Source: an uncultured Fibrobacterota bacterium
Lineage (GTDB): Bacteria > Fibrobacterota > CAYVZU01
Direction: 5' to 3'
DNA: 64,000 nucleotides
Assembly (NCBI GenBank): GCA_964455935.1
Contig: CAYVZU010000008.1
Span: 299-64,298 of the forward strand
Shown: one piece after another, positions 1 to 33,488 of the stretch
How positions within the stretch are numbered: position 1 is the stretch's first letter
How the letters are laid out: every line of letters starts with the position of its first letter
Notes under the pieces: generated by a model
Databases searched by the model: none
What the model saw: only the letters and a program-made list of their open reading frames with translations
What the model was told of the DNA's origin: nothing
Position numbers and translations under genes: made by a program

Positions 1-1
1 G

Positions 2-709
2 ACCCAGGAGGCCCAGAAAATCTTTTCGTCGTCCACGTCCGTGTTCTTTGGGGCCACCCCCTTTATGCACATTCGCTCGGCGCTCCGATTTCTGATCTAC
101 GCTTTTGCCGTGATCGGACCGGCCGGTCTTGTCTACTTTGTTCTGGCGCCGCGGCAGCTCGATCGCCGTCAGCTCCTTTACCTTCTCCTTGGAACCATGC
201 CCCTGTTCCTTTATGGAACGCTGATTCACATTCCTCTCTCCTATTATTATGCGCCGGCCCTGAGCTTTGCTTTGTGCTGGTGTTTTTTCTGCGTGGGCGT
301 GCCAATGGCCAGAACGGGTGTCGCCATCCTTCTCGTTCTGAATATCGCATTCTTTTTCTGTGTACCGCGGCCGCAGTTCGAAAAACCGGACAAACCGTTT
401 GGCGAGCGTTCTTGGACCGCGAACGTAAAGAAGCAGGCCCTCTATCTTGGAGCCAATGGCGCACAGGAGCTTGTTGTTCGCCGCGACTTGATTGCAATGG
501 CCGATGCCCACCTGTCGCGGTCGGCTGTCTTCTATGTGCAGCCGGGAATCCTCTGGGATCGCATCTGGAATTATATGGCCGCCTATCGCTGGCACAACCA
601 CTCAACCGCAGTGCGCGATTCGGCCGAGGTGCGGCTGGAAATCAAGTCCGGCCAGAAAGAAACTCCTGTTGCGGAGTTCGGAAACGCAGGCATCCGGGAG
701 GGAAAGTAG
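2..709 (+). CDS. Hypothetical membrane protein, 5'-truncated at the window edge (the frame is open from position 2). Its stop lies 3 nt before the next gene.
   Basis: Open frame from the window start. Hydrophobic segments. Stop at 707-709 immediately precedes the GT2 start at 712. Confidence 0.45.
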   Translation, partial: TQEAQKIFSSSTSVFFGATPFMHIRSALRFLIYAFAVIGPAGLVYFVLAPRQLDRRQLLYLLLGTMPLFLYGTLIHIPLSYYYAPALSFALCWCFFCVGVPMARTGVAILLVLNIAFFFCVPRPQFEKPDKPFGERSWTANVKKQALYLGANGAQELVVRRDLIAMADAHLSRSAVFYVQPGILWDRIWNYMAAYRWHNHSTAVRDSAEVRLEIKSGQKETPVAEFGNAGIREGK

Positions 710-711
710 TT

Positions 712-1485
712 ATGCTTCAAAACCGAAGAGTGATTGTGGTGATGCCCGCCTACAATTCCGAGAAGACAATTGAAAAGACATACCGCGACATTCCGCTCGA
801 TGTGGTGGACGAGGTCCTTGTGATTGACGACTGCTCGCGCGATCACACCGTGGAGTCGGCGCGAAAGCTCAACCTGCAGGTCTTTTTGCATCAGAAAAAC
901 CTCGGCTACGGGGGGAACCAGAAGACCTGCTATCGCGAGGCCCTTAAGCGGAACGCCGATATCATCATCATGCTCCATCCCGATTATCAGTACCCGCCAA
1001 AACTGATTACCGCGATGGCGGGAATGATCTGCTCGGGCTTGTTCGACATTGTCCTTGGATCGCGCATTCTTTGCGGCATGGCTTTGAAGGGGGGAATGCC
1101 CTACTACAAATATGTCTTCAACCGGCTCCTTACTCTTACGCAAAACATTTTTCTTGGATTAAAACTCTCCGAATACCATACGGGATACCGGGCCTTTACA
1201 CGAGAGGTACTGGAAAGACTTCCGCTTCTGGAGAATTCCGACGATTTCGTTTTCGATAATCAGGTCATTGCGCAAGCGGCTCTTCTTGGGTTCCGAATCG
1301 GCGAGATCAGCGCGCCGGCAGTGTACTCCCAGGAATCCTCCTCCATCAACTTTCACCGCAGCGTCCGTTACGGCCTGGGCGTCCTGTGGACGGCCTGCCA
1401 GTTTGTTTTAGAAAAGAAAGGCCTGAGTCGGTTTCGAATCTTCAACGCTGCGGGACAAACGCTTCAACCAAAAAGCCGCGGCTGA
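712..1485 (+). CDS. Glycosyltransferase family 2 (DPM1-like, soluble)
   Basis: ATG at 712 preceded by GGGAGGGAAAG. Translation begins VIVVMPAYNSEKTIEKT...VIDDCSRDHT, a GT2 nucleotide-sugar binding fold with a DxD-like DD motif. Confidence 0.8.
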   Translation: MLQNRRVIVVMPAYNSEKTIEKTYRDIPLDVVDEVLVIDDCSRDHTVESARKLNLQVFLHQKNLGYGGNQKTCYREALKRNADIIIMLHPDYQYPPKLITAMAGMICSGLFDIVLGSRILCGMALKGGMPYYKYVFNRLLTLTQNIFLGLKLSEYHTGYRAFTREVLERLPLLENSDDFVFDNQVIAQAALLGFRIGEISAPAVYSQESSSINFHRSVRYGLGVLWTACQFVLEKKGLSRFRIFNAAGQTLQPKSRG

Positions 1486-2914
1486 TCAGGCCGGGGCGTC
1501 TCGCCCAAATCCTTAGGGCGGCATACTCAATACCCGCGGCAATCAGGATCGCCCGAAATGGCAGCCATGGAATGGTATACCGGGTCAACCCGATCTCCAC
1601 AGCCGCGGTAATCAGGTATCCGTAGCAGAAAACTCCCGCCGGCAAAGCCAAGCCGGAATGGCCCCCGGCCTTCGGGCGCAGAATGAAAGCCAGTGCCGCC
1701 AAGACCAGAAACCATGAAGTGGGATGCACCATGCCTCGCGCAAACCGCAAAAGACCCAAGGCCGGTCCACCACGGGGCATTGGCGCATTGTCAAGGCCCA
1801 GAAGAATGCGCGGGTCCGGATAATACTCGCGGCAGACAAAGAGCAGTCGGCCAAGATCCTCCCCAATGGCGCAAGCGTAGCGCAAGGGCGAACCGAGGAG
1901 CGACCGAAATGCCCATTGGCTCATGGCCCGGTCGGCTTCGGCATAGGTCATCATCCTATTTGGGACGAGCGTATACATCATATCGTGCGGGATGGCGTTG
2001 AGATCCCAATCGGCCAGAAGATCCGGACTCCGGTAATCGAGACCAAAACCGCGCCGTATCATTGCTTCCCGATACGATGCTTGCAAGGCCACCTGCTTCG
2101 GCGCGCCGCTCTCTAGCAGGCTGTAGGACACGGCCTTGGTCATCAGTGTCAACCCCTGCATCTGTGACCGGCCATAAATGGAATGATGTCGGAGGTTGTA
2201 CAGCGAAAACGGGGCATTCAGGATAATAAACGCCAAAACACACACGCCGAGCGCTTTCAGATCGCGGAAGCGACGCCTGCCCAAATTCCAGATCAGCAGG
2301 GCCGCCACGATCAAGGCAAAAAGGGGATCGGTAACTCCCCGCACATGCGAAGCCAGCGAAAATGTGGTTCCAAGAGCAATGGCCCGCCCAAAATTCGGTT
2401 TCCGGATGAAGGCTATCAGACCCAAAATGCAGAGGACAACGAAAGCAGTGGAAAGGCTCTCCGTCATAATCTCCTGACTGCTCTGCACCAGGAGTGGATC
2501 GATTGCGACCAGTAGCGCAGCGAACAAGGCCGCTGTTTTGCTCTGGCCGCAGCGCAACGCAAGCAGCCAGACCAGCGGCACCAGGCCCGCCATAAGCAGG
2601 TGCTGCAATAGGGTTGGATCTTTGAGCCCGGCCCGGCTCGAGGTGAATGTCTGCAAAAATAGCGGGTAAAGGGGCGCCCGGCGAATCGCCATGGGATTGG
2701 ATTTCCACGAACGCGCCCACTCGACATATTCGGGCGAATCGCCGGTGAAGGCTACAGGATGCTCGGTTCCATACCGCAGATGCGCAACGAGACTCAGGAG
2801 AACACAGCAAGCCAGAAGAATTTCATGCCTGCATCCAAGGCGGACCGCAAGCACCACAACCGCAAAGAGCAGAATGACCGGCAGAATTTCATAGAGGAGC
2901 AAAAACGCCATCAT
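1442..2914 (-). CDS. Polytopic membrane glycosyltransferase, GT-C / PMT_2 (ArnT-like)
   Basis: About 12 predicted TM helices. The motif FTGDSPEYVEWA..RAPLYPLFL resembles the D-E..(h)PPLy motifs of ArnT/PMT-family GT-C enzymes. The start ATGATG at 2914 overlaps the upstream stop (ATGA). Confidence 0.6.
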   Translation of the reverse strand: MMAFLLLYEILPVILLFAVVVLAVRLGCRHEILLACCVLLSLVAHLRYGTEHPVAFTGDSPEYVEWARSWKSNPMAIRRAPLYPLFLQTFTSSRAGLKDPTLLQHLLMAGLVPLVWLLALRCGQSKTAALFAALLVAIDPLLVQSSQEIMTESLSTAFVVLCILGLIAFIRKPNFGRAIALGTTFSLASHVRGVTDPLFALIVAALLIWNLGRRRFRDLKALGVCVLAFIILNAPFSLYNLRHHSIYGRSQMQGLTLMTKAVSYSLLESGAPKQVALQASYREAMIRRGFGLDYRSPDLLADWDLNAIPHDMMYTLVPNRMMTYAEADRAMSQWAFRSLLGSPLRYACAIGEDLGRLLFVCREYYPDPRILLGLDNAPMPRGGPALGLLRFARGMVHPTSWFLVLAALAFILRPKAGGHSGLALPAGVFCYGYLITAAVEIGLTRYTIPWLPFRAILIAAGIEYAALRIWARRPGLISRGFLVEAFVPQR

Positions 2915-4215
2915 CAGCCGCCGTAGTGGGGGAGCCGTGTCCAGTTCATCCAGCCTTGAATCAGGATCAGCAGCGCCACGCCGGCAATCCAGAACGATTT
3001 TCCACGGAGCCCAAGGCGCTCCGCGAGGATCCATTCCAATCCCTTTGCCGCCAGGGCAAAGCAAAGAACCATGGAGTGAAGCCCGTACACCGCGTGAAGC
3101 CTGTTGATAAAGAAGTAAAACCCAAAATCAGCGGCAAAGAAGACAGCGATCAGCGCGATAAGCTTTGTGCTTCCAGCCCGAATAAACGCGTATAGACCAA
3201 TGGCCATCAGAGCCATTTGCGCATATCCCGTGTTCTCCCACAGCACCTGGCACCAGCCCCTACCAAAACGAAGAAGCTCCCTGGCCAATGAGGCCGAGGA
3301 TTGCAGCGACCCGACCCAGATAATTTCGTCATAGCCGCTCACTTCACTGAATTGGTAGGGAATTTCCATTGCGAAGCATGCCAGAATCCAGAGTAGTTGG
3401 GGGACGGCGGCCGCCCCCAGAAACAGGAACACATCCGGCTTCCTTCGAAAAACAGCGTAGAGCGCCGCACCCGCCAAAAATGTGCTGGCCGCCTGTTTGC
3501 CCAAAAAAAGAATCCCCAACACAGCCGCAAAGATTGCCAGGCGGCCGCGACTTATTTTGCCAAACGAGGCTTCGGACCAAAATGCAAGACTTGCCGTGGT
3601 GATCAGTATCTCCAGGCAGCCATATTGAATTTCGCGGAGACTGAGAATCACAATCGGGGTCGCTAGCAGAATGATTCCGGAGAACAGGGCCGCTATCTCG
3701 CCCAGAAATTTGCGGCAGAAATGGACATATGCCAGCACAGCCAAAGCCAGGAAAACAACATTCAAATCAAGCCAGAGAAAATACGTGGCCAAAGTGTCTA
3801 CTGCGCTCCAGGCACCCCATTGGACCGAGTGCCAGCGGACCGGCAAATGATCGAGAACAAGCGGCCGGATCGCGAACTCCCGTACCAGGGCCGTGAGTCC
3901 CGCAACCAAGGGACGATTGACGCGCAGAGTGAAATCCCGCAATATCCACGGAAAACCCAGAGACGAAATGAGTTCGCCGGGTCCATCCATGTTGGTTTGA
4001 TAATAGATCGGAAAGAGCCGCGGATGCGTCACATAGACTTTGGGATGAACTCTCGAAAACATGGGCAGGACAAGAGATAGAGCAAAAACCGCCAGCAGCA
4101 GCAGGCCCATAAGCGCATACGGCCAACGGCCCAACAACCGCTTCTTTTTGGTGTTGTTCGTCCGGATGGCCGCTTCCGGACTCTGTTTGTGCGCAACGCT
4201 GGATGCCGTTTCCAT
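2914..4215 (-). CDS. Polytopic integral membrane protein, putative GT-C-like, function unknown
   Basis: Highly hydrophobic 433 aa. The ATG at 4215 overlaps the upstream stop (ATGA). Confidence 0.55.
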   Translation of the reverse strand: METASSVAHKQSPEAAIRTNNTKKKRLLGRWPYALMGLLLLAVFALSLVLPMFSRVHPKVYVTHPRLFPIYYQTNMDGPGELISSLGFPWILRDFTLRVNRPLVAGLTALVREFAIRPLVLDHLPVRWHSVQWGAWSAVDTLATYFLWLDLNVVFLALAVLAYVHFCRKFLGEIAALFSGIILLATPIVILSLREIQYGCLEILITTASLAFWSEASFGKISRGRLAIFAAVLGILFLGKQAASTFLAGAALYAVFRRKPDVFLFLGAAAVPQLLWILACFAMEIPYQFSEVSGYDEIIWVGSLQSSASLARELLRFGRGWCQVLWENTGYAQMALMAIGLYAFIRAGSTKLIALIAVFFAADFGFYFFINRLHAVYGLHSMVLCFALAAKGLEWILAERLGLRGKSFWIAGVALLILIQGWMNWTRLPHYGG

Positions 4216-5633
4216 CAGGGCTGCCTCCTGGAATCGTTTCTGATAAGCAGTTCAATGAACTTTCCGGAGAAAGCCTTTGCAAACCGATCAGAGCTATTCT
4301 GGACTGAGATTGCGTCGCCGGCGCGCCTTTGTTTGTAGACCAGCAGCGCGTCATAGAAATTCGCCTCGGCCGAATCCGGGGCCGCCATGGTCGCTGGGAC
4401 AGGGCGGAATCCGTTGGCATGCGTCAGTCCGCAAAGGGGGGATACAAGCATGAAGGGTGTGTATCCGTCTTTATAGAAAGAACAATAGAAGAAGGCTTTC
4501 TGCTCGGGCGAGCCGGTGAATTCAAGGACCGGCCGCACTCTTGCCCGGGCCGGCAGGCGCATGGCCGCCTGCTCAATTTCCGCGTAGAAAGGCTTTAGGG
4601 ATCGTTGTTTTTGGATCTGGCCGGTATGCCACACCAGAGCGGCTGAAAGAAGAATGCACGATAAAACCGTCCTGATTATTTTCGCGTTAGGTGCCTGAAG
4701 TGAAAGCGGAAAAATCAAAAGGGCAAAAAGGCCAAATCTCATTTCCGTGAACCCCACGTGCGACACCCACGAGGGGACTAGAAAAGCCATCATGACAACG
4801 AGGACGGGAACCGCGGCAATGCCGGCCGGCATACGCCGGACTCCGGCAATCCAAATTGCGATAGCCCCCAGAAGCGCAATGCGCATCAGCGGCACCTCGA
4901 TCGAAGGATTCCAGTCGTGCAGAAGCCAAAGTATCCGGTTGAGCTTTGTCACAGGCTCGAACGACTGCTTCAGGAAAGTGTGGCTCAGCAAGGAGGCGGC
5001 AAGAAGAAGCAGAAAATAGGCCGCGGCCAGGCCAAGCCGGACATTACGGCTCCTGCTACGCGCGAAAACGATCCATACCAGAACCGCGGCCCCCAGGAGA
5101 AAGGCCAGGGGGTGCGCGGCCGCGGCGGCCAGAAATGCGCAAGCAGCCGCGGCCATTTTTAAACGGTGCGGCAGGCCCGACACGAATGCTGCCAATCCCA
5201 GCATGGCAAACGCGTAACCGGCCAGAAGATCGATGGAGCCGCCGTTGAACCACCAATTGTAGACGAAGAGGGCCGGCCAAAGGCCAAACGGCCAAAACGG
5301 CTGTCCCCTCGCCTTAAGCAAGGCGAGCCCCGCGGCCAACAGCAGAAGAACGCAAATGGACAGCGTCAGTTTTCCGGCCGTAAAGACTCCAAAAGGGAAA
5401 CTCAGCAGAAAGGTTGTGCCATCGAAGAAGTAGTAGGTGCGCAGGCCGGTCCACCGATATTGGTAGTAATGCTCCCATCCCGTTGCGCCGTCGTGCAGGC
5501 CGCGGGCGATTTTAACGCGCAGAAGGTGATCCGGGTAATCCAGTAGTGCGGGATATTTCACCGACCAAATCGGCGTGATGAGCAGCAGAAAGTAAAAGAG
5601 AAGTCCGGTAGCGCGAAGGAAAGCTCGGTTCAT
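4215..5633 (-). CDS. Polytopic integral membrane protein, putative GT-C-like, function unknown
   Basis: Start taken at MNRAFL (5633), which overlaps the GT2 stop at 5630 (ATGA). The longer ORF-track start at 6014 would overlap the whole upstream gene, so I reject it. Confidence 0.55.
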   Translation of the reverse strand: MNRAFLRATGLLFYFLLLITPIWSVKYPALLDYPDHLLRVKIARGLHDGATGWEHYYQYRWTGLRTYYFFDGTTFLLSFPFGVFTAGKLTLSICVLLLLAAGLALLKARGQPFWPFGLWPALFVYNWWFNGGSIDLLAGYAFAMLGLAAFVSGLPHRLKMAAAACAFLAAAAAHPLAFLLGAAVLVWIVFARSRSRNVRLGLAAAYFLLLLAASLLSHTFLKQSFEPVTKLNRILWLLHDWNPSIEVPLMRIALLGAIAIWIAGVRRMPAGIAAVPVLVVMMAFLVPSWVSHVGFTEMRFGLFALLIFPLSLQAPNAKIIRTVLSCILLSAALVWHTGQIQKQRSLKPFYAEIEQAAMRLPARARVRPVLEFTGSPEQKAFFYCSFYKDGYTPFMLVSPLCGLTHANGFRPVPATMAAPDSAEANFYDALLVYKQRRAGDAISVQNSSDRFAKAFSGKFIELLIRNDSRRQP

Positions 5634-6580
5634 TGCTCGAGGTTTGCCGTTTCCTCGACTACATAAAGGGGGCGCTGCTTCACTTCGTTGTATACACGGG
5701 AAAGGTATTCGCCCATAACGCCCAGAAATACCATTTGCATTCCACCCAGAAGCAGCACGACCGAAAGTATCGAAGCCCAGCCGCGAACGGCTCTCTCCGT
5801 AAAGAGAGCGATATACACCGCATATCCCAGGTAGAGGGCGCTCAACAGAAACACGAAAAGGCCGACGTAAAACGCCATGCGCAACGGAAACGCCGTAAAC
5901 GAGGTGATCGCGTCCGCGGCCAGCCGGGCCATTTTGTGGAAGGTATAGCGGCTGTCCTTGCTTCGGCGGGAATCCACGCTGAATTCCAGCAGCACGGGCT
6001 TGAACCCCAGCCAATTCACCAGGCCGCGCAGAAAGCGGTCGCGTTCTTTCAACCGCAGGAATTCATCCACAACCTGCCGATCCATGAGCCGGAAGTCCGG
6101 CACATTGATGCCGATAGGAATTTTCGACCAGTGGTTGAAAAGGGAGTAGAAGACCCGGGTACCGATTCGTTTTAGAAACGGCAGGCCTTGTTCCTGTTTG
6201 CGAACCGCCAAAACAAGCTTGGCGCCGTTTTTCCATGCCTCGATCATTTGGGGAACCATTTGCGGCGGATGCTCGAGATCCGAATCCATGGTGAGAACGG
6301 CCCTTCCTTTGGCCGCTTCGATTCCGGCGCTCAAGGCGATTTGCTGGCCGAAATTGCGCGCAAGGCGAATGCCGCGAATGCGGGAATTTTCGCGGCCCAG
6401 CTGACGAATTAAAGTCCAGGTCCCGTCGCTGCTGCCGTCATCGACGAAGACGATCTCGTAAGACAGCTTCTGCTCTTCCAAAACGGGCAGGACTTGCTCG
6501 CAGAACTCGGCAAGAGTGCTTGCCTCGTTGTAGGCCGGTGAAACGATGCTTACATCCATGCGGAACCTCTTGGAAAACAA
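5630..6580 (-). CDS. Polyprenyl-phosphate glycosyltransferase, GT2 (GtrB/ArnC-like) with a C-terminal TM hairpin
   Basis: Begins VSIVSPAYNEASTL..VFVDDGSSDGT and carries a DSDLEHPP motif. Two C-terminal TM helices are typical of Und-P-sugar synthases. Confidence 0.85.
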   Translation of the reverse strand: MFSKRFRMDVSIVSPAYNEASTLAEFCEQVLPVLEEQKLSYEIVFVDDGSSDGTWTLIRQLGRENSRIRGIRLARNFGQQIALSAGIEAAKGRAVLTMDSDLEHPPQMVPQMIEAWKNGAKLVLAVRKQEQGLPFLKRIGTRVFYSLFNHWSKIPIGINVPDFRLMDRQVVDEFLRLKERDRFLRGLVNWLGFKPVLLEFSVDSRRSKDSRYTFHKMARLAADAITSFTAFPLRMAFYVGLFVFLLSALYLGYAVYIALFTERAVRGWASILSVVLLLGGMQMVFLGVMGEYLSRVYNEVKQRPLYVVEETANLEQ

Positions 6581-6635
6581 TATAAACTTTCTTTTCTGCT
6601 CCTATTAGGAACAAACGTACTTATATTTTGGAAGG

Positions 6636-7529
6636 ATGACCCGCATCGACCCAACTCTGTCCGTTATCATTCCAACCTACAACCGGCACGCTCTTTTGCG
6701 GCGCGCAGTGGCTTCCGTATTGGAGTGTGGCGCCGGCCTGGCGCAGGTCATTGTGGTTGACCAGACCCCCGGTTGCCGGCCGCTGCACCAGCAGCTTTTG
6801 GCCGAGTTTCCCGGCATTGACTTTGTTGCGCTGCCAAAGGCCAACCTTCCGGCAGCGCGCAACGCCGGGGTTGCCCGAAGCAAAGCCCAAATCGTCTTCT
6901 TCCTGGATGACGATGCGATTGTCCGGCCGGGCTGTTTTGAAGCCCATCTGGCCGCGCATGGCCGGGAATCCGTCGAAGCAGTGGCAGGCCGAATCCGGAA
7001 CGTAAACGGCCCTGCCTGGCCCAAAACCCCCCAAGTAACAAGGATCAATCCTGAAACAGGCGAGGGGGTCGGTAATTTCGATCTCGATTATGAAGGTCCT
7101 GTGCTCTATGCGTGCGGGGCGCATATGTCGATCAAGCGCAGCGCTTTGGAAAAAACAGGCGGCTTCGACGCTCATTTCCGGGGAAATGCTCTCTTTGAGG
7201 AGACGGACTTCTTTTTCCGGCTGCGCAAAAGCGGCGGCCTTGTGTGGTATACGCCCCAAGCGGTCGTCGATCATCTTTTGGAGCCCGCGGGCGGCTGCCG
7301 CAAAGAGCAGGGATATCCCTATCTGCTCGACCGAATTCACAATCATGCCCTGTTCTACTTCCGCCATGTCCGCCGGACCCCGTCCAAGAGCTTTCTCGCT
7401 TACATGAGAAATCTGATTGAATTTGCATCGCGATCCGGGTCCGGACACGATCTTTCAAAAGCGATCCGGTGTTTGACGGAACTGACGCGGGCCTACCTTC
7501 ACCATTTCAGTGTCCGGGCGGACGTATGA
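6636..7529 (+). CDS. Glycosyltransferase family 2
   Basis: Begins LSVIIPTYNRHALL, with FLDDDA (DxD). Divergent from the operon at 5630..6580. Confidence 0.8.
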   Translation: MTRIDPTLSVIIPTYNRHALLRRAVASVLECGAGLAQVIVVDQTPGCRPLHQQLLAEFPGIDFVALPKANLPAARNAGVARSKAQIVFFLDDDAIVRPGCFEAHLAAHGRESVEAVAGRIRNVNGPAWPKTPQVTRINPETGEGVGNFDLDYEGPVLYACGAHMSIKRSALEKTGGFDAHFRGNALFEETDFFFRLRKSGGLVWYTPQAVVDHLLEPAGGCRKEQGYPYLLDRIHNHALFYFRHVRRTPSKSFLAYMRNLIEFASRSGSGHDLSKAIRCLTELTRAYLHHFSVRADV

Positions 7530-8629
7530 AGATTGCCTGGATCTATCCCTTCGAACCCAAGCTGGGGAATTCGCTTTACGGCGCTTCCTATGCCCGCGCC
7601 TTGCGCCGCCTTGTTGAGATCGAGGAAATTGACGTGGCCGAGTGCCTGAAGGACTCGGCCGGCGTGTTCGAGAGAATCAACGCGTGCGATACGGCGCACA
7701 TCCAATACGAGATCAATTTTTTCAACCAGGCCGGCACGAACGGCTATGACCGAATCTGCCGACGAATCCATCGGCCCATGGCGGCATCTCTTCATGAACT
7801 GTATCGGAGAATGCCCAATGTATTTCCGCGCGAGGAAATAGCGGGGCCGTGGCCGGTCAAAAAGCTCAAGCAGATCATTTACGATCTCCGCCACCCGGCC
7901 TGCACATTGGTTCGCCGCCACCGCGATTGCCGGTTTCATGCGGATCGGGTGGTCGTGCACTATCCCTATCAGAAAGCCATTCTTGTCGAGCAAGGAATCC
8001 CGGCCCGCCTTGTGGAGATCATTACGCACCCCGTGGTTCCACTGGAGTTGCCCGGCGCGGAGGAGGTCTCGGCAAAGGAACCGCTCAACCTGGGCGCAAC
8101 CGGATTTATCAACCTCAACTACGATTACGATCAGCTCATCGATGCCCTGGCCCTGCTCAAGCGGCCCTGGCGGTTCACCTGGGCGGGCGGACTTCGCCGC
8201 GAGGAAGACAAGAGTCTCCTTGAATCGATTCAGAACAAGGTTGCCGCCAGGGGCTGGAAAGACCGGTTTGAAATCACCGGATGGATTTCCGAGGAGGAGC
8301 TCATCCGCCACTTGGCAAGCTTCCAGGTAGTGCTGGCCCTGTTTTCGGCCCGCAGCACATCAGGAACCTTGGCCAAAGCGATTGCGGCACGAAGCGCTAT
8401 TGTGGCGCGCAGAATGGAGTTGACCCTGGATCTGAATGCCGAACGGCCGATTATGCTTCTCACCGGCGAATCGGCCGAAGAAGCCGCCAACCAGATCGCC
8501 CGTGCTGCCGAGGACGCCCCATTGCGGCGGCGGTTAATGGCCAACATCGATCTCTACGTCACCGATCACACGTATGACAAAATGGCCCGGCAGGTTGTTG
8601 CCATGCACGAAGGCCTGCTGCGCGGCTGA
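7526..8629 (+). CDS. Putative GT-B fold glycosyltransferase (GT4-like, divergent)
   Basis: The ATG at 7526 overlaps the upstream stop (ATGA). The C-terminal half resembles GT1/GT4 donor-binding domains. Weak call. Confidence 0.45.
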   Translation: MKIAWIYPFEPKLGNSLYGASYARALRRLVEIEEIDVAECLKDSAGVFERINACDTAHIQYEINFFNQAGTNGYDRICRRIHRPMAASLHELYRRMPNVFPREEIAGPWPVKKLKQIIYDLRHPACTLVRRHRDCRFHADRVVVHYPYQKAILVEQGIPARLVEIITHPVVPLELPGAEEVSAKEPLNLGATGFINLNYDYDQLIDALALLKRPWRFTWAGGLRREEDKSLLESIQNKVAARGWKDRFEITGWISEEELIRHLASFQVVLALFSARSTSGTLAKAIAARSAIVARRMELTLDLNAERPIMLLTGESAEEAANQIARAAEDAPLRRRLMANIDLYVTDHTYDKMARQVVAMHEGLLRG

Positions 8630-8780
8630 GATTGCCGATCCAAAACGGATCGACCGGACACCTCAATGCCGCAGTGGATCCGTGGTTGAAAAATGGGACG
8701 ATCTTGCCCCGGATTTTCGGATGGAAAATTGCGTCCGCCCGCCGCGATGCGCCAGGGCGGTTCCGGCGGGAAAAACCCAA

Positions 8781-9014
8781 TCACATTGTCAACGCCACGC
8801 CCTCAAGGACCGAAAGAAGCGAAAGCATGTGCTCGCCGGCCTCGGCCAGGTTTGAGCCCGTAGCATGGACAACCACCGGACCCTTGGAGAGGACAATCAC
8901 CCAGATCCGCTTCTGGTCCTTTTTGCGGATCCAGGAATTCATTTCACAGTTCCATCCGTAGTTGGAGGTATAAACCTTCAGCTTGCGAACGCACCGGGCG
9001 AGCACTGTCGCCAT
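8781..9014 (-). CDS. Small hypothetical protein (77 aa)
   Basis: ORF only. No recognisable family. Confidence 0.25.
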   Translation of the reverse strand: MATVLARCVRKLKVYTSNYGWNCEMNSWIRKKDQKRIWVIVLSKGPVVVHATGSNLAEAGEHMLSLLSVLEGVALTM

Positions 9015-9190
9015 AAAGGCCTCCTTGCCTGCTCGCTTCCCATGCCGATCGGAAAACTCCTAATTGCGGCCCTGGGTCTGGATTATCTCCCTGGCATCTC
9101 GCCGGATGCCATTCTTTTTATCGGATTGTTTCGACCCGGGTTGATCGCGATTTCATGGAGAAAAAAGGCTGAAGGAGAACTTAACAAAGA

Positions 9191-9211
9191 ACCTGAAACC
9201 GAGCTTCAGGT
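9191..9211 (-). terminator. Hairpin ACCTGAAGCUCGGUUUCAGGU plus a U-rich tail, downstream of the DUF2225 gene
   Basis: A 7-bp stem and 7-nt loop, followed on the minus strand by UCUUUGUU. Confidence 0.4.
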
Positions 9212-9265
9212 TTAGCAATACGAAACGGCTTTGATTCCCGATTCTGATGCGTTCTGCGCTGGCTC

Positions 9266-10237
9266 TCAGCAGAATTTGAACAGGTCTGGATTGTCGCGGT
9301 CTTCCCATAGCGCCTTGGTGCGCTGCTGCCATTTTTCCACGCAGATCGTGTTGATCTTTGGATCCTCACGCATCTTCTTTTTCATCTCAGCCAGGATGCG
9401 GTCGAAGACGCCCATGTAGCTCCCCGCCTTCTGTTCGTTTCTCAGGCGCATATGCAGGGCCACAATCGTGTAGATGCTTTGGTACTCGATTTCCTCGGAC
9501 GGCGAGTTGGACAGGCGGAAGGCATCGGAAAAATAGTCGAGCGCTTCCTTGAGCGTCTCTTCGTTGTTGCCGCCCGAGTCACGAAGGATCTGGGCGATCT
9601 TAAGAGAATAGGCGCCCATCTTGTAGTAGGAGTAGGGCGTCTCGTAATAGGCTTCGATTCCCGCGCGCATGATGGCCAGCCGGTAGCTGAGAATGGCCGC
9701 GTCATCCGTACGGGGGCGGCCAAAGAAGCTGGACACATCGGCCACGCTTTTAAGCAGCGCCTTGCGCTCGCCAATGCGTTCCTGAAGCGTAAGAATGACG
9801 TTGGGATTGAGCTGGGACGGCGCATTCTTGGCCGTGGGCGAGGCGCTGACAAAATCTTTTTTATCGACCGAACCCAGCAGGCACCGCGGGCAGATGATCA
9901 CGGCCAGGCGCGAGAAATTGACCGTGCGGTATCCCATGGCGCCCTGGTATAGCGGAACCATGAATTTGTTGAAGGTGACCTGCTGCGACTTGGCCCGGAG
10001 TTCATAGCCCGTGATCTTGTCGAAATTGCAGACCGGGCACTTGACCAAAATCTCATAAACCGGGTCTTCACCGGTCTGTTCTTCTTCACGGAGCTGAAAT
10101 TTCTTGGCGTCTTTAAGCTTCTTGATGTTCTTGATGTCGAGCTTGGGGCCGAACCGCCGGATGTACTCGCTTGTGAGGTTCTCGTCTTCGAGAAGGCTCA
10201 TGAGCCGGCGCTTGACTTCCTGGACATCGATGGGCAT
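9266..10237 (-). CDS. DUF2225-like zinc-ribbon protein
   Basis: CPVCNF...CPRC cysteine pairs and overall similarity to the DUF2225 family, from memory. Confidence 0.55.
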   Translation of the reverse strand: MPIDVQEVKRRLMSLLEDENLTSEYIRRFGPKLDIKNIKKLKDAKKFQLREEEQTGEDPVYEILVKCPVCNFDKITGYELRAKSQQVTFNKFMVPLYQGAMGYRTVNFSRLAVIICPRCLLGSVDKKDFVSASPTAKNAPSQLNPNVILTLQERIGERKALLKSVADVSSFFGRPRTDDAAILSYRLAIMRAGIEAYYETPYSYYKMGAYSLKIAQILRDSGGNNEETLKEALDYFSDAFRLSNSPSEEIEYQSIYTIVALHMRLRNEQKAGSYMGVFDRILAEMKKKMREDPKINTICVEKWQQRTKALWEDRDNPDLFKFC

Positions 10238-11743: not shown

Positions 11744-13978
11744 TTATTCGAAGCGGACTTTTCCGTTGGTCTGAATCAGAAACCGTTTGTCCCAGATAAC
11801 GTCCGGGCCCAACGTGATCTGAAGGGTGTGCGAGGTCTTGTCGAGATCCAGCAGCATCACCGTATTGCGCGTGAGCACGGGCAGCAGCAGCTCCCCGTCG
11901 ATGCGCGCCCAGTGCGGGTTCTGCTCCTTGATGCTGTCGGGCAGAACGATGCGCGCGGCCCTAAAATCCGGGTTTTTCCGGAAGCTGAGGGCAAGGCCCG
12001 CGGAGATGGCGTACGCGGCGTACTCGTTATACCCGTTGCTGGTGTCGGGCAGAAGGATTCCCGAGACGGAAACGCGCAGGGCCGGGCAGGGCGTCTGCTG
12101 CAGGAACGTGTTCGAATAGGGCAGGGGCCCTTTGCAGCGGGCCAAACCCAGCACGGAAACGGCGGCGCGCGAAACGGCCTGGCCGATCTGCCGGGCCGGC
12201 TCGCTTGCGGCATAATGGTAGATGCGGCAGGCCGGGTCTTTGAGCGAATCGTGTCCTATCGACATCGCGAGGTCGAATTCCCGCTCCAGGGACTGCTCGA
12301 CTCGCTGGAATGGTGTGCGGGTCTGGTTTCCCATGCGGGTGAAGTGGACCTCGGCGCCGGCAAGAGCAAGAAAATGGGCCAGCCGTCGCGCAAACCGCAT
12401 GTTCTGGTCCGCCGCGCGGATCTTCCAGGGGCTTTTGGTTCCGCTTGCCTCGCCGCCGAACTCCGGGTCCAGCAGAATGCGCCGGCCCAAAAGAGCGCCC
12501 TGGTGAAAAGCCGCCATGGGCGTCTGCGTGCTTTCGGGACAAAAGGCGGTTTCGCGAAACCCGGGCCTGGAAAACCGGGGCCGGCCGCTCTCGACCGGAG
12601 CCCAAAAGAACCCGTTGGGGTCGGTCCGGGTCTGCGGTATGCGGAGCTCCGAGAGGACCTGCGCGTCCCCAATCCCGGCTCCGGTGGCCGCGTTGCACAC
12701 AAAACCCGAGTGGTAGCGCAGTGCGCGTTCGCCGGCCACGGCGACACTGTCGGCCAGGGATTCGGCCATGACCGACACCAGGACCGGCTTCAGGGAATCG
12801 GCCCTCCAGTAGTTAAGGGCCTGCCCTGCCTTCGTGACCGTTGAATCATAACGCAACCGGCCTCTTGATGCGCGAAACGAGACCTTGTATCCGTCGGCCA
12901 CCGGCCGGTGCAGCGAATCGCACAGATCGGCGGCCACCCGGACCCATTGACCCGGGCGGAACACCGGCGGGTCCGCGCGCAGGCGCAGAGACGCGGGCCG
13001 CAGATCGACCTTAAAGCGGACCGTGCGCAGGACCGAAAAAGCCATGCTGCGCGAGACCAGTTGAACCGATGCGCTGTGCCAGCCGTTCGACAGGGGAGCG
13101 GCGGGCCGAAACGAAAGGAAGTTTTGTTCCACCAGCGGCGCGGCCGGCGTCCCGTCGATAAAACAGGCGGCGCCCCGCGCCGCCGCGAAATCCGTTCCGG
13201 GTTGAAGCCGGGCCACGATCAGCGGATCGGCATGGGGCAAAACCTGTTCCGAAGGCAGAATGTCGACGATCCGGGCCGCTTCCATGGAAAAGAATTGGAC
13301 AATCCCCTGCAGGTAGGCCCGTGCCTCGGTTTCCACGGCCGCCCAGGTCCCCAGAATCATCTCCTGATCCGGATGGGAAATGTAGCTGGGTTCACCCAGC
13401 AGGGCCGGGCCGCGGCTGTTGCGCAGGACAAAGTAATTGCCCGGCACGATTTCCTCGGGTTCGATTTTCAGGTTGCGGGCCAGGGCGCGGTGAATGCTTG
13501 CGGCGGCCTCGAACGAGGCGCCCGGGTCGTGCATGGCGTAGAATGTCTTTGTGTCGTTGATCGCGCGGTTCTCGGTCGCATTGTGGTGAATCGAGATGAA
13601 GAGGTCCGCTGCGGCCATGTTTGCCCGCCGCATCCGCTCGATAAGGTCCGCCTTCAGGTTGCGTCCGCGGGCCGCGTCCATGAGAAAGTCGCGGTCCTGC
13701 CAACGCGTCAGCACGGGTTGCGCGCCCATGGAATCGAGCAGGCAAAAGAGGCGCCAGGCCACCGCCAGGTTCAGGTCTTTTTCCAAAAGTCCGTTCTGGC
13801 CCACGGCCCCTTTGTATGCGCCGCCGTGGCCGGGGTCCAGCACAATCACCTTTCCCGCGATCGCCTCGGCAGTCAGGGGGAGGGGATCGGCGCCGGAGTA
13901 CCAGGGCACCGTGGAAGGGAGCGGAGGGCATCCACATAGAAACAACGCGCCCGCAAGCAGGCCAACGAACTTCTTCAT
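11744..13978 (-). CDS. N-acetylmuramoyl-L-alanine amidase (two Amidase_3-like domains), lipoprotein
   Basis: Signal peptide with LFLCGC. Carries DPGHGG..SIHHNA motifs and a second LDPEFGG module. Confidence 0.8.
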   Translation of the reverse strand: MKKFVGLLAGALFLCGCPPLPSTVPWYSGADPLPLTAEAIAGKVIVLDPGHGGAYKGAVGQNGLLEKDLNLAVAWRLFCLLDSMGAQPVLTRWQDRDFLMDAARGRNLKADLIERMRRANMAAADLFISIHHNATENRAINDTKTFYAMHDPGASFEAAASIHRALARNLKIEPEEIVPGNYFVLRNSRGPALLGEPSYISHPDQEMILGTWAAVETEARAYLQGIVQFFSMEAARIVDILPSEQVLPHADPLIVARLQPGTDFAAARGAACFIDGTPAAPLVEQNFLSFRPAAPLSNGWHSASVQLVSRSMAFSVLRTVRFKVDLRPASLRLRADPPVFRPGQWVRVAADLCDSLHRPVADGYKVSFRASRGRLRYDSTVTKAGQALNYWRADSLKPVLVSVMAESLADSVAVAGERALRYHSGFVCNAATGAGIGDAQVLSELRIPQTRTDPNGFFWAPVESGRPRFSRPGFRETAFCPESTQTPMAAFHQGALLGRRILLDPEFGGEASGTKSPWKIRAADQNMRFARRLAHFLALAGAEVHFTRMGNQTRTPFQRVEQSLEREFDLAMSIGHDSLKDPACRIYHYAASEPARQIGQAVSRAAVSVLGLARCKGPLPYSNTFLQQTPCPALRVSVSGILLPDTSNGYNEYAAYAISAGLALSFRKNPDFRAARIVLPDSIKEQNPHWARIDGELLLPVLTRNTVMLLDLDKTSHTLQITLGPDVIWDKRFLIQTNGKVRFE

Positions 13979-14250
13979 TGCATTTTAAAATAAGGATTGG
14001 AGTTCCGGGGATGCCAGAGAAGAAGCGCTTGGCAAGAGACGTGGAACGTTTGACGTAAAACGCAAAACCAAGGGGACGCGCCCTCCGCCCACATTCAGTA
14101 TTCCCTCGTCTAACGTCTAACCTTCCAACGTCTTTCCAAGCTTCTTGACCTTCGCCCTGCCGTTCGGCATTTTGGGATTAGAGCCAGCCCTTCGGACCGG
14201 CTCAGCCTTCCTATTGAGTTCCATCCTTTTCCTCTTACAGGAGGGTTCCC

Positions 14251-15288: not shown

Positions 15289-15795
15289 TCAACTGCCAAC
15301 TTTTTGATCGGGCGGTTCGTCCCTGGGGGGAGCGAGACGGTGGGGATGACCGTGTTTGAGTTTTCGCACATAGGCTTCGGCCAGAAGCCGAATCGCGGCG
15401 TAGCTGGCGACCGAAAGCAGAAGGGCAAGAATGCTGATGCCCACCAGAAATTTCTGGGTGAAGTGGAAAATGCGGCTGAACAGCGTAATGTCGACATCGA
15501 CCGACGGCGTATTTGAAAACAGGAATCCGCCGATTTTTAGGCTGGGCGGAATCAGCGAGGCTGTAAACAGAGGATTCCAGAAGAAGATGGCCGCAAAAAG
15601 GGAAATTCGGTTCACCTTGCGAAAGACCACTGCGATCAGAAGCCCCAGCAGCAGGTTGAACCCGGGCGTGGGCATAATGGCGATGAAGCTGCCAATGGCA
15701 AATCCCAGGGCAATGGAATGCGGCGACCCGCCGGACCGCAGGACTTCCACAACCCGCCTGCGTATTGCCCTCAGCCATGTCCTGGTTCTGTTCAT
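15289..15795 (-). CDS. DUF2062-like membrane protein
   Basis: N-terminal RRR..L..GGSPHSIALGFAIGSFIAIMPTPG motif and TM helices. Confidence 0.55.
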   Translation of the reverse strand: MNRTRTWLRAIRRRVVEVLRSGGSPHSIALGFAIGSFIAIMPTPGFNLLLGLLIAVVFRKVNRISLFAAIFFWNPLFTASLIPPSLKIGGFLFSNTPSVDVDITLFSRIFHFTQKFLVGISILALLLSVASYAAIRLLAEAYVRKLKHGHPHRLAPPRDEPPDQKVGS

Positions 15796-18238: not shown

Positions 18239-18982
18239 ATGCTCAATTACCACGATCTGGCCACTCACGAGAACGAGCTCAGCGATGATTACCTGCTTCA
18301 TTGTCTTCTGCGAGCCCGCGTCGAGACCCACCATGAAACCGAAGAGGACGAAGACGTTAATGTTTATCTCGTGAACCTGCTTGGCCAGTACATGCGGGCC
18401 GAGTTCGTGGATCATGTCGGCGAGTACCTCTCAAAGTTCGATACCGTGATCTCGGAAAAGGTGCGCCAGCACAATGACACCGTCTATACCTATTATACCT
18501 ACAAGGCCAACGCGGATTTTTATCTTCTGGGCCTGAGCATCTTTGGCGGGCTCGAAAACAAGCGGGTGCCCGAAGCGCTGCGCCTGACCGAAAAGAACTT
18601 CGCCGACAGAGGCAAAGCCTATTACTCTTTTGCCGCCGATCTGAACCGGCAGGTCTTTCACAAAGTGACGGCCGTCTGCGGAATTTTGGCGAAATTGTCC
18701 AAATCCTTTCCCGTTTACCTCGAGGTCCTTCATCATGTCAAAGACCGATACTTTCATATCGAGGATCGGGTCATGAGCGAGGGCGAATGGTTCCACCTCG
18801 AACGGGAAATCAACCACGAGTCCGACAAGGTTCTTTTCAAGGAGAAGATCGACGTTCTTCTGGACCTCTACTCCTCATATCAAAAAGAGCCCGATCCCCA
18901 TACGCGCAAGCGGATTTTGGAGCTTGTGGCCGAACTCAAATCGCATGATCCCAAATTCGATTTTCCGATCGAGAAGTTATAG
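18239..18982 (+). CDS. Hypothetical protein
   Basis: ORF with TATAAT at about 18174 and a GGGGG RBS. No family recognised. Confidence 0.45.
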   Translation: MLNYHDLATHENELSDDYLLHCLLRARVETHHETEEDEDVNVYLVNLLGQYMRAEFVDHVGEYLSKFDTVISEKVRQHNDTVYTYYTYKANADFYLLGLSIFGGLENKRVPEALRLTEKNFADRGKAYYSFAADLNRQVFHKVTAVCGILAKLSKSFPVYLEVLHHVKDRYFHIEDRVMSEGEWFHLEREINHESDKVLFKEKIDVLLDLYSSYQKEPDPHTRKRILELVAELKSHDPKFDFPIEKL

Positions 18983-19268: not shown

Positions 19269-20078
19269 TCACCCGTATCGTCCTTCGATGTAGTCGGCTG
19301 TTTTGGGGTTCTGGGGCTTGATGAAAAGCTCTTCTGTGCGGGTGTGTTCGATCACTTCGCCCAGGAGCATGAAAATGCACTCGTCGCTGGCGCGGCGGGC
19401 CTGGGCCATGTTGTGCGTTACGATCGCAATTGTGTAGTTCCCCCGCAGCTTAAACATCAATTCCTCAATGGCCCGCGTGCCTTCCACGTCCAGCGAGGAA
19501 CACGGCTCGTCCATCAAGATCACTTCGGGCTTCAACGGAAGCAGGCGCGCGATACAAAGTTTCTGCTGCTGTTCCAATTGAAGCGTCGTGGCCCTGGCGG
19601 AGAGACGATCCTTGACATCCTTCCAAAGTCCCACCTCGGTTAGCGCGGTTTCGACCGCTTCGTCAAGTTGGGATTTTTGCAGTTGCATGCGCGGCGTGTG
19701 GACGCGAAGCCCAAAAACAACATTCTCGTAAACCGAAATGGGCAAGGGATTGGGTCGCTGAAAGACCATACCCACGCATTTGCGCAGTTCGATCAGCGAA
19801 ACGTCGGCATCATAGATGTTCTTGCCCAGAATTTCGATAACGCCCGCAGTGCGAACGTAGCTATAGCGCTCATTGATTCGGTTGAAGCACCGGAGCAACG
19901 TGGTTTTGCCGCATCCACTGGGGCCGATTAGAGACGTAATCAGGCCGTGCTTGATTTGCACGCTTACATTCTTAAGCGCCTGGAATTTGCCATACCACAG
20001 GTTCAGGTCCCGGGTGATAATGCTGTGAGGGCGTGGGGCATTCATGAAGTTATCCAAAAATACCATTGACATATTCAT
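19269..20078 (-). CDS. pstB: Phosphate ABC transporter ATPase PstB paralog with a degenerate signature motif
   Basis: Walker A GPSGCGKTT, Q-loop GMVFQRPNP, Walker B ILMDEPCSSLD and H-loop VTHNMAQA are all canonical. The signature reads LQLEQQQKL instead of LSGGQ. Confidence 0.85.
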   Translation of the reverse strand: MNMSMVFLDNFMNAPRPHSIITRDLNLWYGKFQALKNVSVQIKHGLITSLIGPSGCGKTTLLRCFNRINERYSYVRTAGVIEILGKNIYDADVSLIELRKCVGMVFQRPNPLPISVYENVVFGLRVHTPRMQLQKSQLDEAVETALTEVGLWKDVKDRLSARATTLQLEQQQKLCIARLLPLKPEVILMDEPCSSLDVEGTRAIEELMFKLRGNYTIAIVTHNMAQARRASDECIFMLLGEVIEHTRTEELFIKPQNPKTADYIEGRYG

Positions 20079-20823
20079 ACGTTTCCCGTCGGGCGGGCTT
20101 GTTGGAAAAAATCACAGCCGTGCGGTCCAGTTCCACGATTTCCCCATTCCACATAAACATCGTGCGGTCGGCCAGCCGCCGGGCCTGGTGGGTAAGATTT
20201 GTCACCAGCAGAATGGTAATCTCTTTGCGGAGTTCTTTGAGAACATCCTCGATGCGCATGGTGGTAACCGGATCGATCGCGATGGAGAATTCGTCGAGGC
20301 ACAAAATTTCCGGCTGGTGCGACAAGGCCCGCGCAATGGTCAGACGCTGCTGCTGGCCGCCCGAAAGTGCCGTTCCCAGACTGTTCAGCCGATCTTTCAC
20401 CTCGTCCCACAGAGCGGCCTGTGTCAGGCATCGTTCCACAATTTCGTCAAGATCGTTTCTTCGTGTAAGGCCGGCGCTGCGGGGCGCGAAAGCGACATTG
20501 TCATAAATACTTAACGGCAGGCCCACGGGAAGCGGGGCGACCATGCCGATCTTGCGCCGCAGGGCATGCACATCTCTTACGCGGCGAATATCTTCACCAT
20601 CAACCCGGATTGTCCCCGACACCAGCGCATTGGCCGTGAAATCGATGGTCCGGTTGAGGCAGCGCAGTAGTGAGGTTTTTCCCGACTGGGCCGGCCCGAT
20701 AATACTGAAGATCTCGTTGCGGTTCACATCGAAGCTGATCCCGTGGATCGCCTCGATCCCGCCGTAACTGACCCGCAGATCACGGACCTCGATCGCCTTG
20801 GGCTCTGTCATGGCGTTTCCCAT
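20050..20823 (-). CDS. pstB: Phosphate ABC transporter ATPase PstB paralog with a canonical signature but degenerate Q/H-loops
   Basis: Signature LSGGQQQRL and Walker A GPAQSGKTS. The Q-loop glutamine is absent (GMVAPLP). Walker B region reads ILCLDEFSIAID. H-loop region reads VTNLTHQA. Confidence 0.85.
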   Translation of the reverse strand: MGNAMTEPKAIEVRDLRVSYGGIEAIHGISFDVNRNEIFSIIGPAQSGKTSLLRCLNRTIDFTANALVSGTIRVDGEDIRRVRDVHALRRKIGMVAPLPVGLPLSIYDNVAFAPRSAGLTRRNDLDEIVERCLTQAALWDEVKDRLNSLGTALSGGQQQRLTIARALSHQPEILCLDEFSIAIDPVTTMRIEDVLKELRKEITILLVTNLTHQARRLADRTMFMWNGEIVELDRTAVIFSNKPARRETYEYVNGIFG

Positions 20824-20834
20824 TTTGTCCGCTC

Positions 20835-20973
20835 TTCACCACAGAGACACAGAGGACACAGAGGACACAGAGAAGAAATATTCATGGCATTCCAATGCGA
20901 ATGACAGTATTTCCAATAATCCGCTTTATAATTTTGCTTTTCCATCTCTGTGATCTCCGTGCTCTGTGGTGAA
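20835..20973. repeat. MITE-like element with perfect 12-bp terminal inverted repeats TTCACCACAGAG / CTCTGTGGTGAA, inserted between pstA and pstB
   Basis: Terminal inverted repeats at 20835..20846 and 20962..20973. Internally GACACAGAG occurs 3 times in tandem. Confidence 0.6.
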
Positions 20974-20976
20974 TGG

Positions 20977-21888: not shown

Positions 21889-21893
21889 TAACT

Positions 21894-23740: not shown

Positions 23741-23744
23741 TTTT

Positions 23745-30673: not shown

Positions 30674-30735
30674 TGGATCGAGTCTGTTCAGCGCCCCCTT
30701 CCCATCCTTCCCCCGCAGGGGGCAGGTGCTTAAGG

Positions 30736-30770: not shown

Positions 30771-30775
30771 CAGCG

Positions 30776-32698: not shown

Positions 32699-32716
32699 CA
32701 TGGCCGGAACACCATA

Positions 32717-33475: not shown

Positions 33476-33488
33476 GCGAGGAACCACC

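Follow-up and report, generated by a model that had tools for sequence, protein, structure and literature searches.

A GtrB-type synthase and three unrelated GT-C-fold membrane proteins in a probable periplasmic glycosylation module of an uncultured Fibrobacterota bacterium

The main subject of this analysis is a four-gene operon on the minus strand (1442..6580) of a 64,000-nucleotide stretch of DNA from an uncultured Fibrobacterota bacterium (GCA_964455935.1, contig CAYVZU010000008.1, positions 299 to 64,298), the whole of which is referred to here as the window. The operon encodes a GtrB-type GT2 followed by three membrane proteins, MP1, MP2 and MP3, all of which are GT-C-fold glycosyltransferases, as seen from Pfam matches for MP3 and from predicted structures for MP1 and MP2. 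The region probably represents a periplasmic glycosylation module of the type that couples a lipid-phosphate-sugar donor to GT-C enzymes, expanded in this case to three transferases. The original prediction, that a lipid-linked sugar synthase supplies up to three transferases at the periplasmic face, is supported by the full-length GtrB homology of the synthase and by the presence of the three GT-Cs. What is new here is that a single coupled operon combines one synthase with three GT-Cs that are unrelated to each other. The class of mechanism is a well-known one, which the finding refines rather than overturns.

The operon, its donor synthase and its membrane proteins

The first gene of the operon encodes the GT2 (5630..6559, 309 amino acids), and this is followed by MP1 (4215..5633, 472 amino acids), MP2 (2914..4215, 433 amino acids) and, as the last gene, MP3 (1442..2914, 490 amino acids). 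The proposal of four consecutive minus-strand genes is borne out by the list of open reading frames (ORFs) and by the public gene calls for the same 64,372-bp contig, the products of which are identical at 309, 472, 433 and 490 amino acids; the length of 473 first given for MP1 was thus one residue too many. On direct reading of the sequence, the GT2/MP1 junction (GAGCAATGAACC) is an ATGA overlap of 4 nt at 5630..5633, the MP1/MP2 junction (AGGAGGCAGCCCTGATGG) is a TGATG overlap of 1 nt at 4215 and the MP2/MP3 junction (GGCGGCTGATGATGG) is likewise a TGATG overlap of 1 nt at 2914. Coupling through ATGA had been suggested for all three junctions: the overlaps stand, but the ATGA form applies to GT2/MP1 only. 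A strong AGGAGG is found 8 nt ahead of the MP2 ATG, and the GT2 most likely starts with the ATG at 6559 rather than with the TTG at 6580, the former having AGAGG 6 nt upstream. The plus strand has a strongly positive AT skew across 2-6 kb, as is to be expected from T-rich membrane-protein coding on the minus strand.

Overlap of start and stop codons is common in operons, and the four ORFs are taken as real genes because of their homologues and of a gene order that is kept in a second contig, L001 (Logan SRR20608312), and not because of any overlap statistic. L001 carries, on one strand, genes for a type I phosphomannose isomerase, a GT4, GtrB, MP1, MP2, MP3 and a GT2, with the module genes overlapping or abutting. 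Recurrence of the gene order in relatives, which had been put forward as a check, is therefore seen for the block GT4-GtrB-MP1-MP2-MP3-GT2. Identity to the window proteins is 76% for GtrB, 57% for MP1, 53-57% for MP2 and 58-61% for MP3, falling to 37% for the HpsN-like GT2 and to 26%, over the full length, for the GT4, whose gene adjoins that of GtrB.

The GT2 is predicted from its sequence to be a GtrB-type polyprenyl-phosphate hexose synthase. It contains a Glycos_transf_2 domain (Pfam, 5.7e-34, residues 4-166), and its best solved relative is the Synechocystis GtrB sll0501 (5ekp, E 4.1e-73, 39% identity), the gapless alignment of the two spanning 307 residues (query 2-308, chain 27-333). 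The DxD-type segment is kept (MDSDLEHPP against IDADLQDPP of GtrB), as are the DFRLMDR and C-terminal GEYL.RVY.EVK.RPLY segments, and hydropathy reveals two C-terminal hydrophobic helices at about 228-244 and 264-280. The suggestion of a GtrB/ArnC-like GT2 with a C-terminal transmembrane hairpin is thus upheld by the Pfam match, the full-length alignment and the two terminal helices. Among solved structures GtrB scores 250 bits and ArnC 145 bits (ArnC E ~1e-41 to 2.7e-41), with an archaeal dolichyl-phosphate-mannose (Dol-P-Man) synthase as a weaker match (4e-20). The best NCBIfam match is PgfS (1.7e-75, 254 bits, full length; equivalog cut-off of 500 missed), and the ArnC model is also matched over its full length (2.5e-47, 161 bits; equivalog cut-off of 529 missed). 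Glucose, or a sugar closely related to it, is the most likely one to be placed on the lipid carrier.

Of the membrane proteins it is MP3 whose sequence is most readily placed, with Pfam matches to PMT (8.7e-12, 45.6 bits, cut-off 22.7) and PMT_2 (2.5e-8, 34.7 bits, cut-off 26.1); its orthologue in L001 scores 27.5 bits with PMT_2. The two motifs that first drew attention to this protein, FTGDSPEYVEW (residues 56-66) and RAPLYPLFL (79-87), are present and are conserved in that orthologue, the only one found, such that D59, E62, E65 and R79-x-P-L-Y-P are shared between two sequences only. In the hydropathy profile the motif loop follows two N-terminal helices and precedes a block of helices; an insert of ~155 residues (239-395) comes next, with three more helices after it, and this layout recalls the PMTs. 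No MIR domain was detected in MP3 with Pfam at E <= 0.1, and the 239-395 insert has no family match.

MP1 has no Pfam or NCBIfam match, and the same is true of MP2. For all three membrane proteins, single-sequence and profile searches against PDB sequences returned nothing meaningful, and only the comparison of folds worked. An iterated search with MP1 returned 11 relatives, and a structure model built from a 12-sequence alignment (predicted local distance difference test, pLDDT, 73.6; predicted template modelling score, pTM, 0.79) has top Foldseek matches in the PDB, among the best 16-20, that are exclusively GT-C enzymes. The predicted architecture is that of a GT-C, with a first transmembrane helix (TM1), a long first outer loop containing short helices and a multi-helix transmembrane core, and the protein ends in a C-terminal extramembrane domain of about 130 amino acids. 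An identity of MP1 as an oligosaccharyltransferase was also considered and rejected: the C-terminal domain bearing WWDxG is not present, and a NWWFNGG segment belongs to the transmembrane core, with only G132 conserved in the family.

A full HMMER scan of the MP1 profile against 1.84 billion cluster representatives at 50% identity recovered 12,199 proteins at E <= 1e-3 and 2,905 at E <= 1e-30, the matches being nearly all of about 470-570 amino acids and matched over their full length. Across 39 diverse members D32, H36, R39, G132, H174, P287 and R299 are invariant, and D71 (at least 90%), W61, D246 and W335 are nearly so. The signature of the family follows TM1 and consists of the invariant D32-x3-H36-x2-R39 within a consensus PPLxDYPNHLAR, or more generally DYP(N/D)HxxR. 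Neither Pfam nor NCBIfam gives a match to the GT-C region of any of the 39. Members also occur in replicons of Azospirillum, Skermanella and Methylobacterium, where RefSeq labels them, the Skermanella protein included, as 'hypothetical protein'. MP1 is therefore best described, on the strength of its model, as a predicted member of a large GT-C family for which there is no Pfam or NCBIfam model.

The family appears tied to lipid-phosphate-sugar chemistry by three independent observations on fusions and neighbours. Two members, P0076 and P0113, have an N-terminal GtrA_DPMS_TM domain (3.7e-24 and 7.8e-14), a GtrB/PgfS-like GT2 (7.7e-70) directly follows a distant MP1-family gene in the contig L062, and in L064 there is a 4-nt overlap between an MP1-family gene and the end of a GtrB/PgfS-like gene (3.9e-29) of which the C-terminal half is visible. 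In other contexts MP1-family genes are found alone among housekeeping genes, after a GT9 lipopolysaccharide (LPS) heptosyltransferase or beside a sulfatase-like transferase. The MP1-relative loci are at L062 359..3029, L064 2..2427, L063 1..2823 and L061 5956..7464. A structural and contextual handle on the family is thus given by the fold, by the D/H/R residues that are invariant in the loop, and by the association with GtrA through fusion and with GtrB through gene neighbourhood. Were its function known, thousands of 'hypothetical proteins' could be annotated, and a new CAZy family might result.

MP2, by comparison, has only three homologues among 5.8 billion proteins. Against PMT_2 (cut-off 26.1) these score 30.0 bits (P0004), 24.7 bits (P0005) and 23.9 bits (P0006). 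An AlphaFold2 model of MP2 from a four-sequence alignment (pLDDT 62, pTM 0.65) has a disordered loop at 50-108; its top 20 Foldseek matches are all GT-C enzymes, at a probability of 0.99-1.00, with the first transporters at <=0.3. Conservation in the family is highest in the first loop (HPRLxPxYYQTNxD77, followed by N100-R-P-L). MP2 would therefore appear from its model and its homologues to be a very divergent PMT_2 relative with a GT-C fold. It ends in a transmembrane helix and has no C-terminal soluble domain, and with this the WWDxG-bearing domain expected of an oligosaccharyltransferase (PglB/AglB/STT3) is absent. P0006, the most distant homologue, is encoded at the end of the contig L002 (1..9750), adjoining a sugar-modification cluster that holds two DegT aminotransferases, B12/radical-SAM enzymes, methyltransferases and a TPR/GT41 protein.

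The earlier expectation of at least one GT-C/PMT-like membrane protein is thus exceeded, with MP3 passing both the PMT and PMT_2 thresholds and all three proteins being GT-C. That they would match non-glycosyltransferase families only, such as transporters or ligases, had been named as a case against the assignment and is not what is found: MP3 falls into PMT/PMT_2 and the folds of MP1 and MP2 match only GT-C enzymes among their top matches. Acidic loop motifs, the absence of which would have counted in the same direction, occur in all three, with conserved residues after TM1 at D32 and D71 in MP1, at D77 in MP2 and, as judged from two sequences, at D59/E62 in MP3. Nor are the three obviously paralogous, as was first remarked, since hhalign probabilities between the three family profiles are 8.5%, 0.2% and 0.1%; with paralogy set aside at <=8.5%, MP1, MP2 and MP3 appear from their sequences to be three different GT-C lineages and not recent duplicates. 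ALG12, ALG9, ALG3, PimE and ArnT are among the structural matches of the MP1 and MP2 models, ArnT being a top one, and no membership of the GT22, GT58 or GT87 models was found at the sequence level. The N-termini of MP1 and MP2 are rich in K/R before TM1, and because a crude positive-inside count favours an N-in topology, their conserved first loops would be extracytoplasmic; crude hydropathy similarly suggests that the first loops of all three proteins lie outside the cytoplasm.

Proposed pathway and competing explanations

In the proposed mechanism the GtrB-type GT2 would, from its homology, move a hexose from a nucleotide sugar to undecaprenyl or polyprenyl phosphate at the cytoplasmic face of the membrane. 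The lipid-linked sugar would then be flipped across the membrane and would be used on the outer face by MP1, MP2 and MP3, in reactions where catalysis would involve the conserved acidic residues of the first extracytoplasmic loop. The three transferases may extend one and the same envelope glycoconjugate, with residues that are added in succession or differ in their linkage, and the synthesis of this glycoconjugate would be started by the cytoplasmic GT2 and GT4 encoded next to the operon. Translational coupling, together with a gene order that is kept in a relative at ~57-76% identity, indicates that all four proteins are co-produced and serve one pathway, and stepwise or position-specific additions to one glycoconjugate are favoured because three unrelated GT-Cs occur together and are accompanied by two cytoplasmic glycosyltransferases.

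One of the questions raised by such an arrangement relates to whether the three transferases share an acceptor. By analogy with multi-step pathways, one shared acceptor is the preferred reading over three independent acceptors; this may be a lipid-linked glycan, the LPS core or a protein, and the data favour neither of the routes first suggested, protein O-mannosylation-like or lipid A/LPS-core modification. A more far-reaching proposal is that the MP1 family constitutes a very large unnamed GT-C family using GtrB-made sugars and that the operon is a periplasmic stepwise assembly line. This is a tentative suggestion, and such an assembly line would be, by analogy, a prokaryotic counterpart of the ALG3/9/12 logic of the lumen of the endoplasmic reticulum (ER), placed on one coupled transcript.

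A number of points weigh against the reading of the region as a three-transferase periplasmic module. The full module is found in one other contig only, so that its conservation amounts to two instances, and the family alignment for MP3 similarly contains two sequences only. The model of MP2 is mediocre, with a pLDDT <50 in the catalytic loop 50-108, and topology was assigned with a crude hydropathy script and a positive-inside count in place of a trained predictor. The PgfS and ArnC equivalog cut-offs, which would have fixed the sugar of the GT2 product, are both widely missed. No GtrA, SMR or MATE flippase is found in the cluster or in the rest of the window, and no acceptor, initiating phosphoglycosyltransferase, Wzx/Wzy, ABC exporter or target protein is encoded nearby.

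The alternative that survives best is protein O-glycosylation, in which MP3, and perhaps MP1 and MP2, would move a hexose to Ser/Thr of exported proteins. Precedents for this include the actinobacterial Ppm1/Pmt, streptococcal GtrB/PgtC2 and PgfS/PgfM1/PgfM2 systems, the last of which acts on proteins and has one GT2 and two GT-Cs encoded together in its operon. It is in keeping with PMT being the best Pfam match of MP3 (45.6 bits), with the PMT-like placing in MP3 of a large insert between transmembrane blocks followed by further helices, and with PgfS being the best NCBIfam match of the GT2 (1.7e-75). However, MP3 has no MIR domain detectable with Pfam, none of the GT-Cs has the YfhO Pfam match found in Pgf and PgtC2, and neither an epimerase nor a Ser/Thr-rich candidate target is encoded nearby. 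Protein O-glycosylation is considered unlikely.

Decoration of lipid A or the LPS core, where ArnT-like GT-Cs would move a sugar in the periplasm from a lipid phosphate to lipid A phosphates or core sugars in the manner of ArnC/ArnT or of rhizobial Rgt, draws on the full-length alignment of the GT2 with ArnC (NCBIfam 2.5e-47), on the membership of MP3 and of MP2 homologues in PMT_2, the family model of ArnT, and on the distant MP1-family genes of which one follows a GT9 LPS heptosyltransferase and another adjoins a sulfatase-like transferase. The flagellar and rod-binding/SLT genes of the window would also fit a Gram-negative envelope. Against this, the scanned genes of the window include no ArnA/B/D/E/F and no lipid A or core genes, the GT2 misses the ArnC equivalog cut-off (161 against 529) and is matched much better by GtrB (250 against 145 bits), and lipid A modification would not usually involve three different transferases for a single sugar. 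Such a role is unlikely.

Much the same doubt attaches to the modification of a polysaccharide made elsewhere (O antigen, capsule or exopolysaccharide), with each GT-C placing one and the same sugar as a side chain at a position of its own. The type-specific Gtr enzymes of Shigella and Salmonella add sugars in this way, as side chains. The closest solved relative of the synthase is a GtrB, GtrA is fused to members of the MP1 family, and three-component systems are widespread, with some having several GT-Cs (PMC11127046). On the other hand, no gtrA gene, prophage or O-antigen locus is found nearby, and Gtr clusters hold one type-specific transferase rather than three conserved unrelated ones; the module travels instead with a cytoplasmic GT2 and a GT4. 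This explanation, too, is improbable.

Finally, it is very unlikely that one or more of the membrane proteins is a non-glycosyltransferase (a scaffold, lipid-linked-sugar flippase, polymerase/ligase or transporter) beside one true transferase, for although a flippase is otherwise not found and MP1 and MP2 are without a curated family assignment, transporters reach a Foldseek probability of <=0.3 and invariant Asp, His and Arg residues lie just after TM1, exactly at the position of GT-C catalytic residues.

Neighbouring genes and the wider window

The presence of further GT2 and GT-B genes on both sides of the operon, as originally noted, is confirmed by Pfam. Divergent from the operon on the plus strand are the two conserved partners of the module, which are a cytoplasmic HpsN/EpsD-like GT2 of 297 amino acids (6636..7529; Pfam Glycos_transf_2 2.2e-21; NCBIfam HpsN 9.7e-40, below cut-off) and, overlapping it by 4 nt, a GT-B of the GT4/GT1 type with 367 amino acids (7526..8629; Pfam Glyco_trans_1_4 8.3e-9 and Glycos_transf_1 4.9e-7). 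The A+T-rich spacer of 76 bp between the operon and this divergent pair (6560..6635) presumably holds the promoters for both units. A consensus sigma-70 scan gave no promoter match in 6560..6635, and across 1..9400 the consensus scan for promoters and terminators was uninformative, with 1 promoter-like site against 3.9 expected. No regulatory RNA was found near the operon in an Rfam search. A further contig, L003, shares only MP2 and the HpsN-like GT2 (37% identical), and the products of L003:2-1273 and L003:3573-4889 were rejected as equivalents of MP1 and MP3, as they align poorly and have no GT-C matches.

On the other side of the operon, and convergent with MP3, is the gene for a soluble DPM1/AglJ/PpgS-like GT2 of 257 amino acids (712..1485, plus strand; Pfam Glycos_transf_2 1.2e-22), with NCBIfam matches that all fall below their cut-offs (AglJ 7.7e-19, PpgS 3.6e-17, Dol-P-hexose transferase 2.9e-14) and with the Dol-P-Man synthase of P. 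furiosus as its best solved relative (2.3e-10). The 3' ends of the two convergent genes overlap by 44 nt (1442..1485), and the C-terminal tail of MP3 that this overlap encodes is absent from the L001 orthologue. Just upstream of the DPM1-like gene, an ORF on the plus strand (41..709, 222 amino acids) encodes a protein in which four N-terminal transmembrane helices are followed by ~110 amino acids of soluble tail, with no Pfam or NCBIfam match. Neither protein has a counterpart in L001. It may be speculated that the two supply a second lipid-linked donor, the GT2 possibly as a further polyprenyl-phosphate sugar synthase, and membership of the 41..709 protein in the system is uncertain. A role for the latter as a GtrA-type flippase is not supported: it has no Pfam match, and hhalign reveals no similarity between it and the GtrA domains of P0076 and P0113. 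A scan of the whole window for small multi-helix membrane ORFs found only two, this one and 15289..15795 (minus strand), which is an ORF of 168 amino acids with 3-4 hydrophobic helices located 7 kb away.

Beyond 8.6 kb the genes are of a housekeeping nature, including DUF2225, citrate synthase, an amidase, an M48 protease, an amylase-family enzyme and phosphate transport. The best matches of the citrate synthase among GTDB genomes are Nitrospirota MAGs at only 65% identity, and these share no synteny with the window. Several features of this wider region can be recorded in their own right. A c-di-AMP (ydaO-type) riboswitch (RF00379, 87.8 bits, 37056..37190, minus strand) lies just upstream of a gene for a Kup-family K+ transporter (34894..36795, minus strand; K_trans 2e-175), which is an ordinary pairing. 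A fusion of a GT1/GT4 domain to TPR repeats (47194..49449, minus strand, 751 amino acids) is encoded near a set of flagellar genes (51071..56351, minus strand) comprising two flagellin genes, FlgK and a rod-binding/SLT (FlgJ-like) gene, and could be a flagellin glycosylation enzyme. Two phosphate-ABC-transporter/PhoU sets (19269..24869, minus strand, and 29852..34169, plus strand) flank a response-regulator/histidine-kinase pair (25125..27598, plus strand), and the PhoU encoded at 23745..24869 also contains, as a fusion, a low-molecular-weight phosphotyrosine phosphatase domain. The G+C fraction rises to 0.644 at 12001..14000, compared with ~0.55 elsewhere, within a 744-amino-acid Amidase_3 gene (11744..13978). 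Long ORFs without a Pfam match at E <= 1e-5 are found at 28280..29797 (plus), 45330..47021 (plus), 37478..38482 (minus) and 18239..18982 (plus).

Comparison with known systems

In the periplasm, lipid-phosphate sugars serve as donors for glycosylation that shapes O antigens, lipid A, teichoic acids, mycobacterial arabinan and bacterial glycoproteins. To our knowledge, the known systems of this kind employ one synthase together with one, occasionally two, GT-C enzymes. In the Gtr system of Shigella, Salmonella and their phages, for instance, GtrA acts as the flippase, GtrB as the undecaprenyl-phosphate-glucose synthase and a type-specific GT-C as the transferase. The window resembles this in having a synthase that is a full-length GtrB homologue, followed by polytopic GT-C-fold proteins that are expected to act at the periplasmic face. 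It differs in having no GtrA, in having three unrelated GT-Cs as opposed to one, and in that the module lies outside a prophage or O-antigen locus and is associated instead with a cytoplasmic GT2 and a GT4.

The three-component periplasmic glycosylation pathway has been reviewed and extended (PMC11127046), and the closest operon-level precedent for the present arrangement is pgfS-pgfM1-pgfE-pgfM2, in which a GT2 and two GT-Cs are encoded in one operon (bioRxiv 10.1101/2024.05.05.592596). Common to this Pgf system of Streptococcus mutans and the window are a GtrB-like GT2 and more than one GT-C in a single operon, with PgfS being the best NCBIfam match. The window GT2, however, reaches 254 bits against the PgfS equivalog cut-off of 500, the GT-Cs have no Pfam match to the YfhO family, the cluster contains no epimerase match but a third GT-C, and the host, to judge from its flagellar genes, appears to be Gram-negative and flagellated. 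With respect to ArnC/ArnT, the GT2 has an ArnC-like architecture, and MP3 and the relatives of MP2 fall into PMT_2, the family of ArnT; yet ArnA/B/D/E/F were not found in the scanned genes of the window, ArnC is a much weaker match than GtrB, and the window has three transferases.

Multi-step elongation from one lipid-phosphate sugar is known from ALG3, ALG9 and ALG12 with DPM1 in the ER, and from mycobacteria, where Ppm1 serves PimE and MptA-C after the cytoplasmic PimA/PimB (GT4). The likeness to these pathways consists in one polyprenyl-phosphate sugar synthase, several non-identical GT-Cs and cytoplasmic GT4/GT2 enzymes, in the appearance of ALG12, ALG9, ALG3 and PimE among the structural matches of the window proteins, and in the type I phosphomannose isomerase gene that adjoins the module in L001. 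In contrast, the synthase of the window is GtrB-like and not DPM1/Ppm1-like, and its module is packed into one translationally coupled operon. The likeness is to be read as a functional one only. A conserved unit of one synthase and three GT-Cs would represent a minimal and genetically tractable model of multi-step extracytoplasmic glycan assembly. Because GtrA, YfhO-type GT-Cs, an epimerase and ArnA/B/D/E/F are all lacking and the equivalog cut-offs are missed, the module is not Gtr, Pgf or Arn proper; it would work like the Gtr, Pgf and Arn systems and belongs to none of them.

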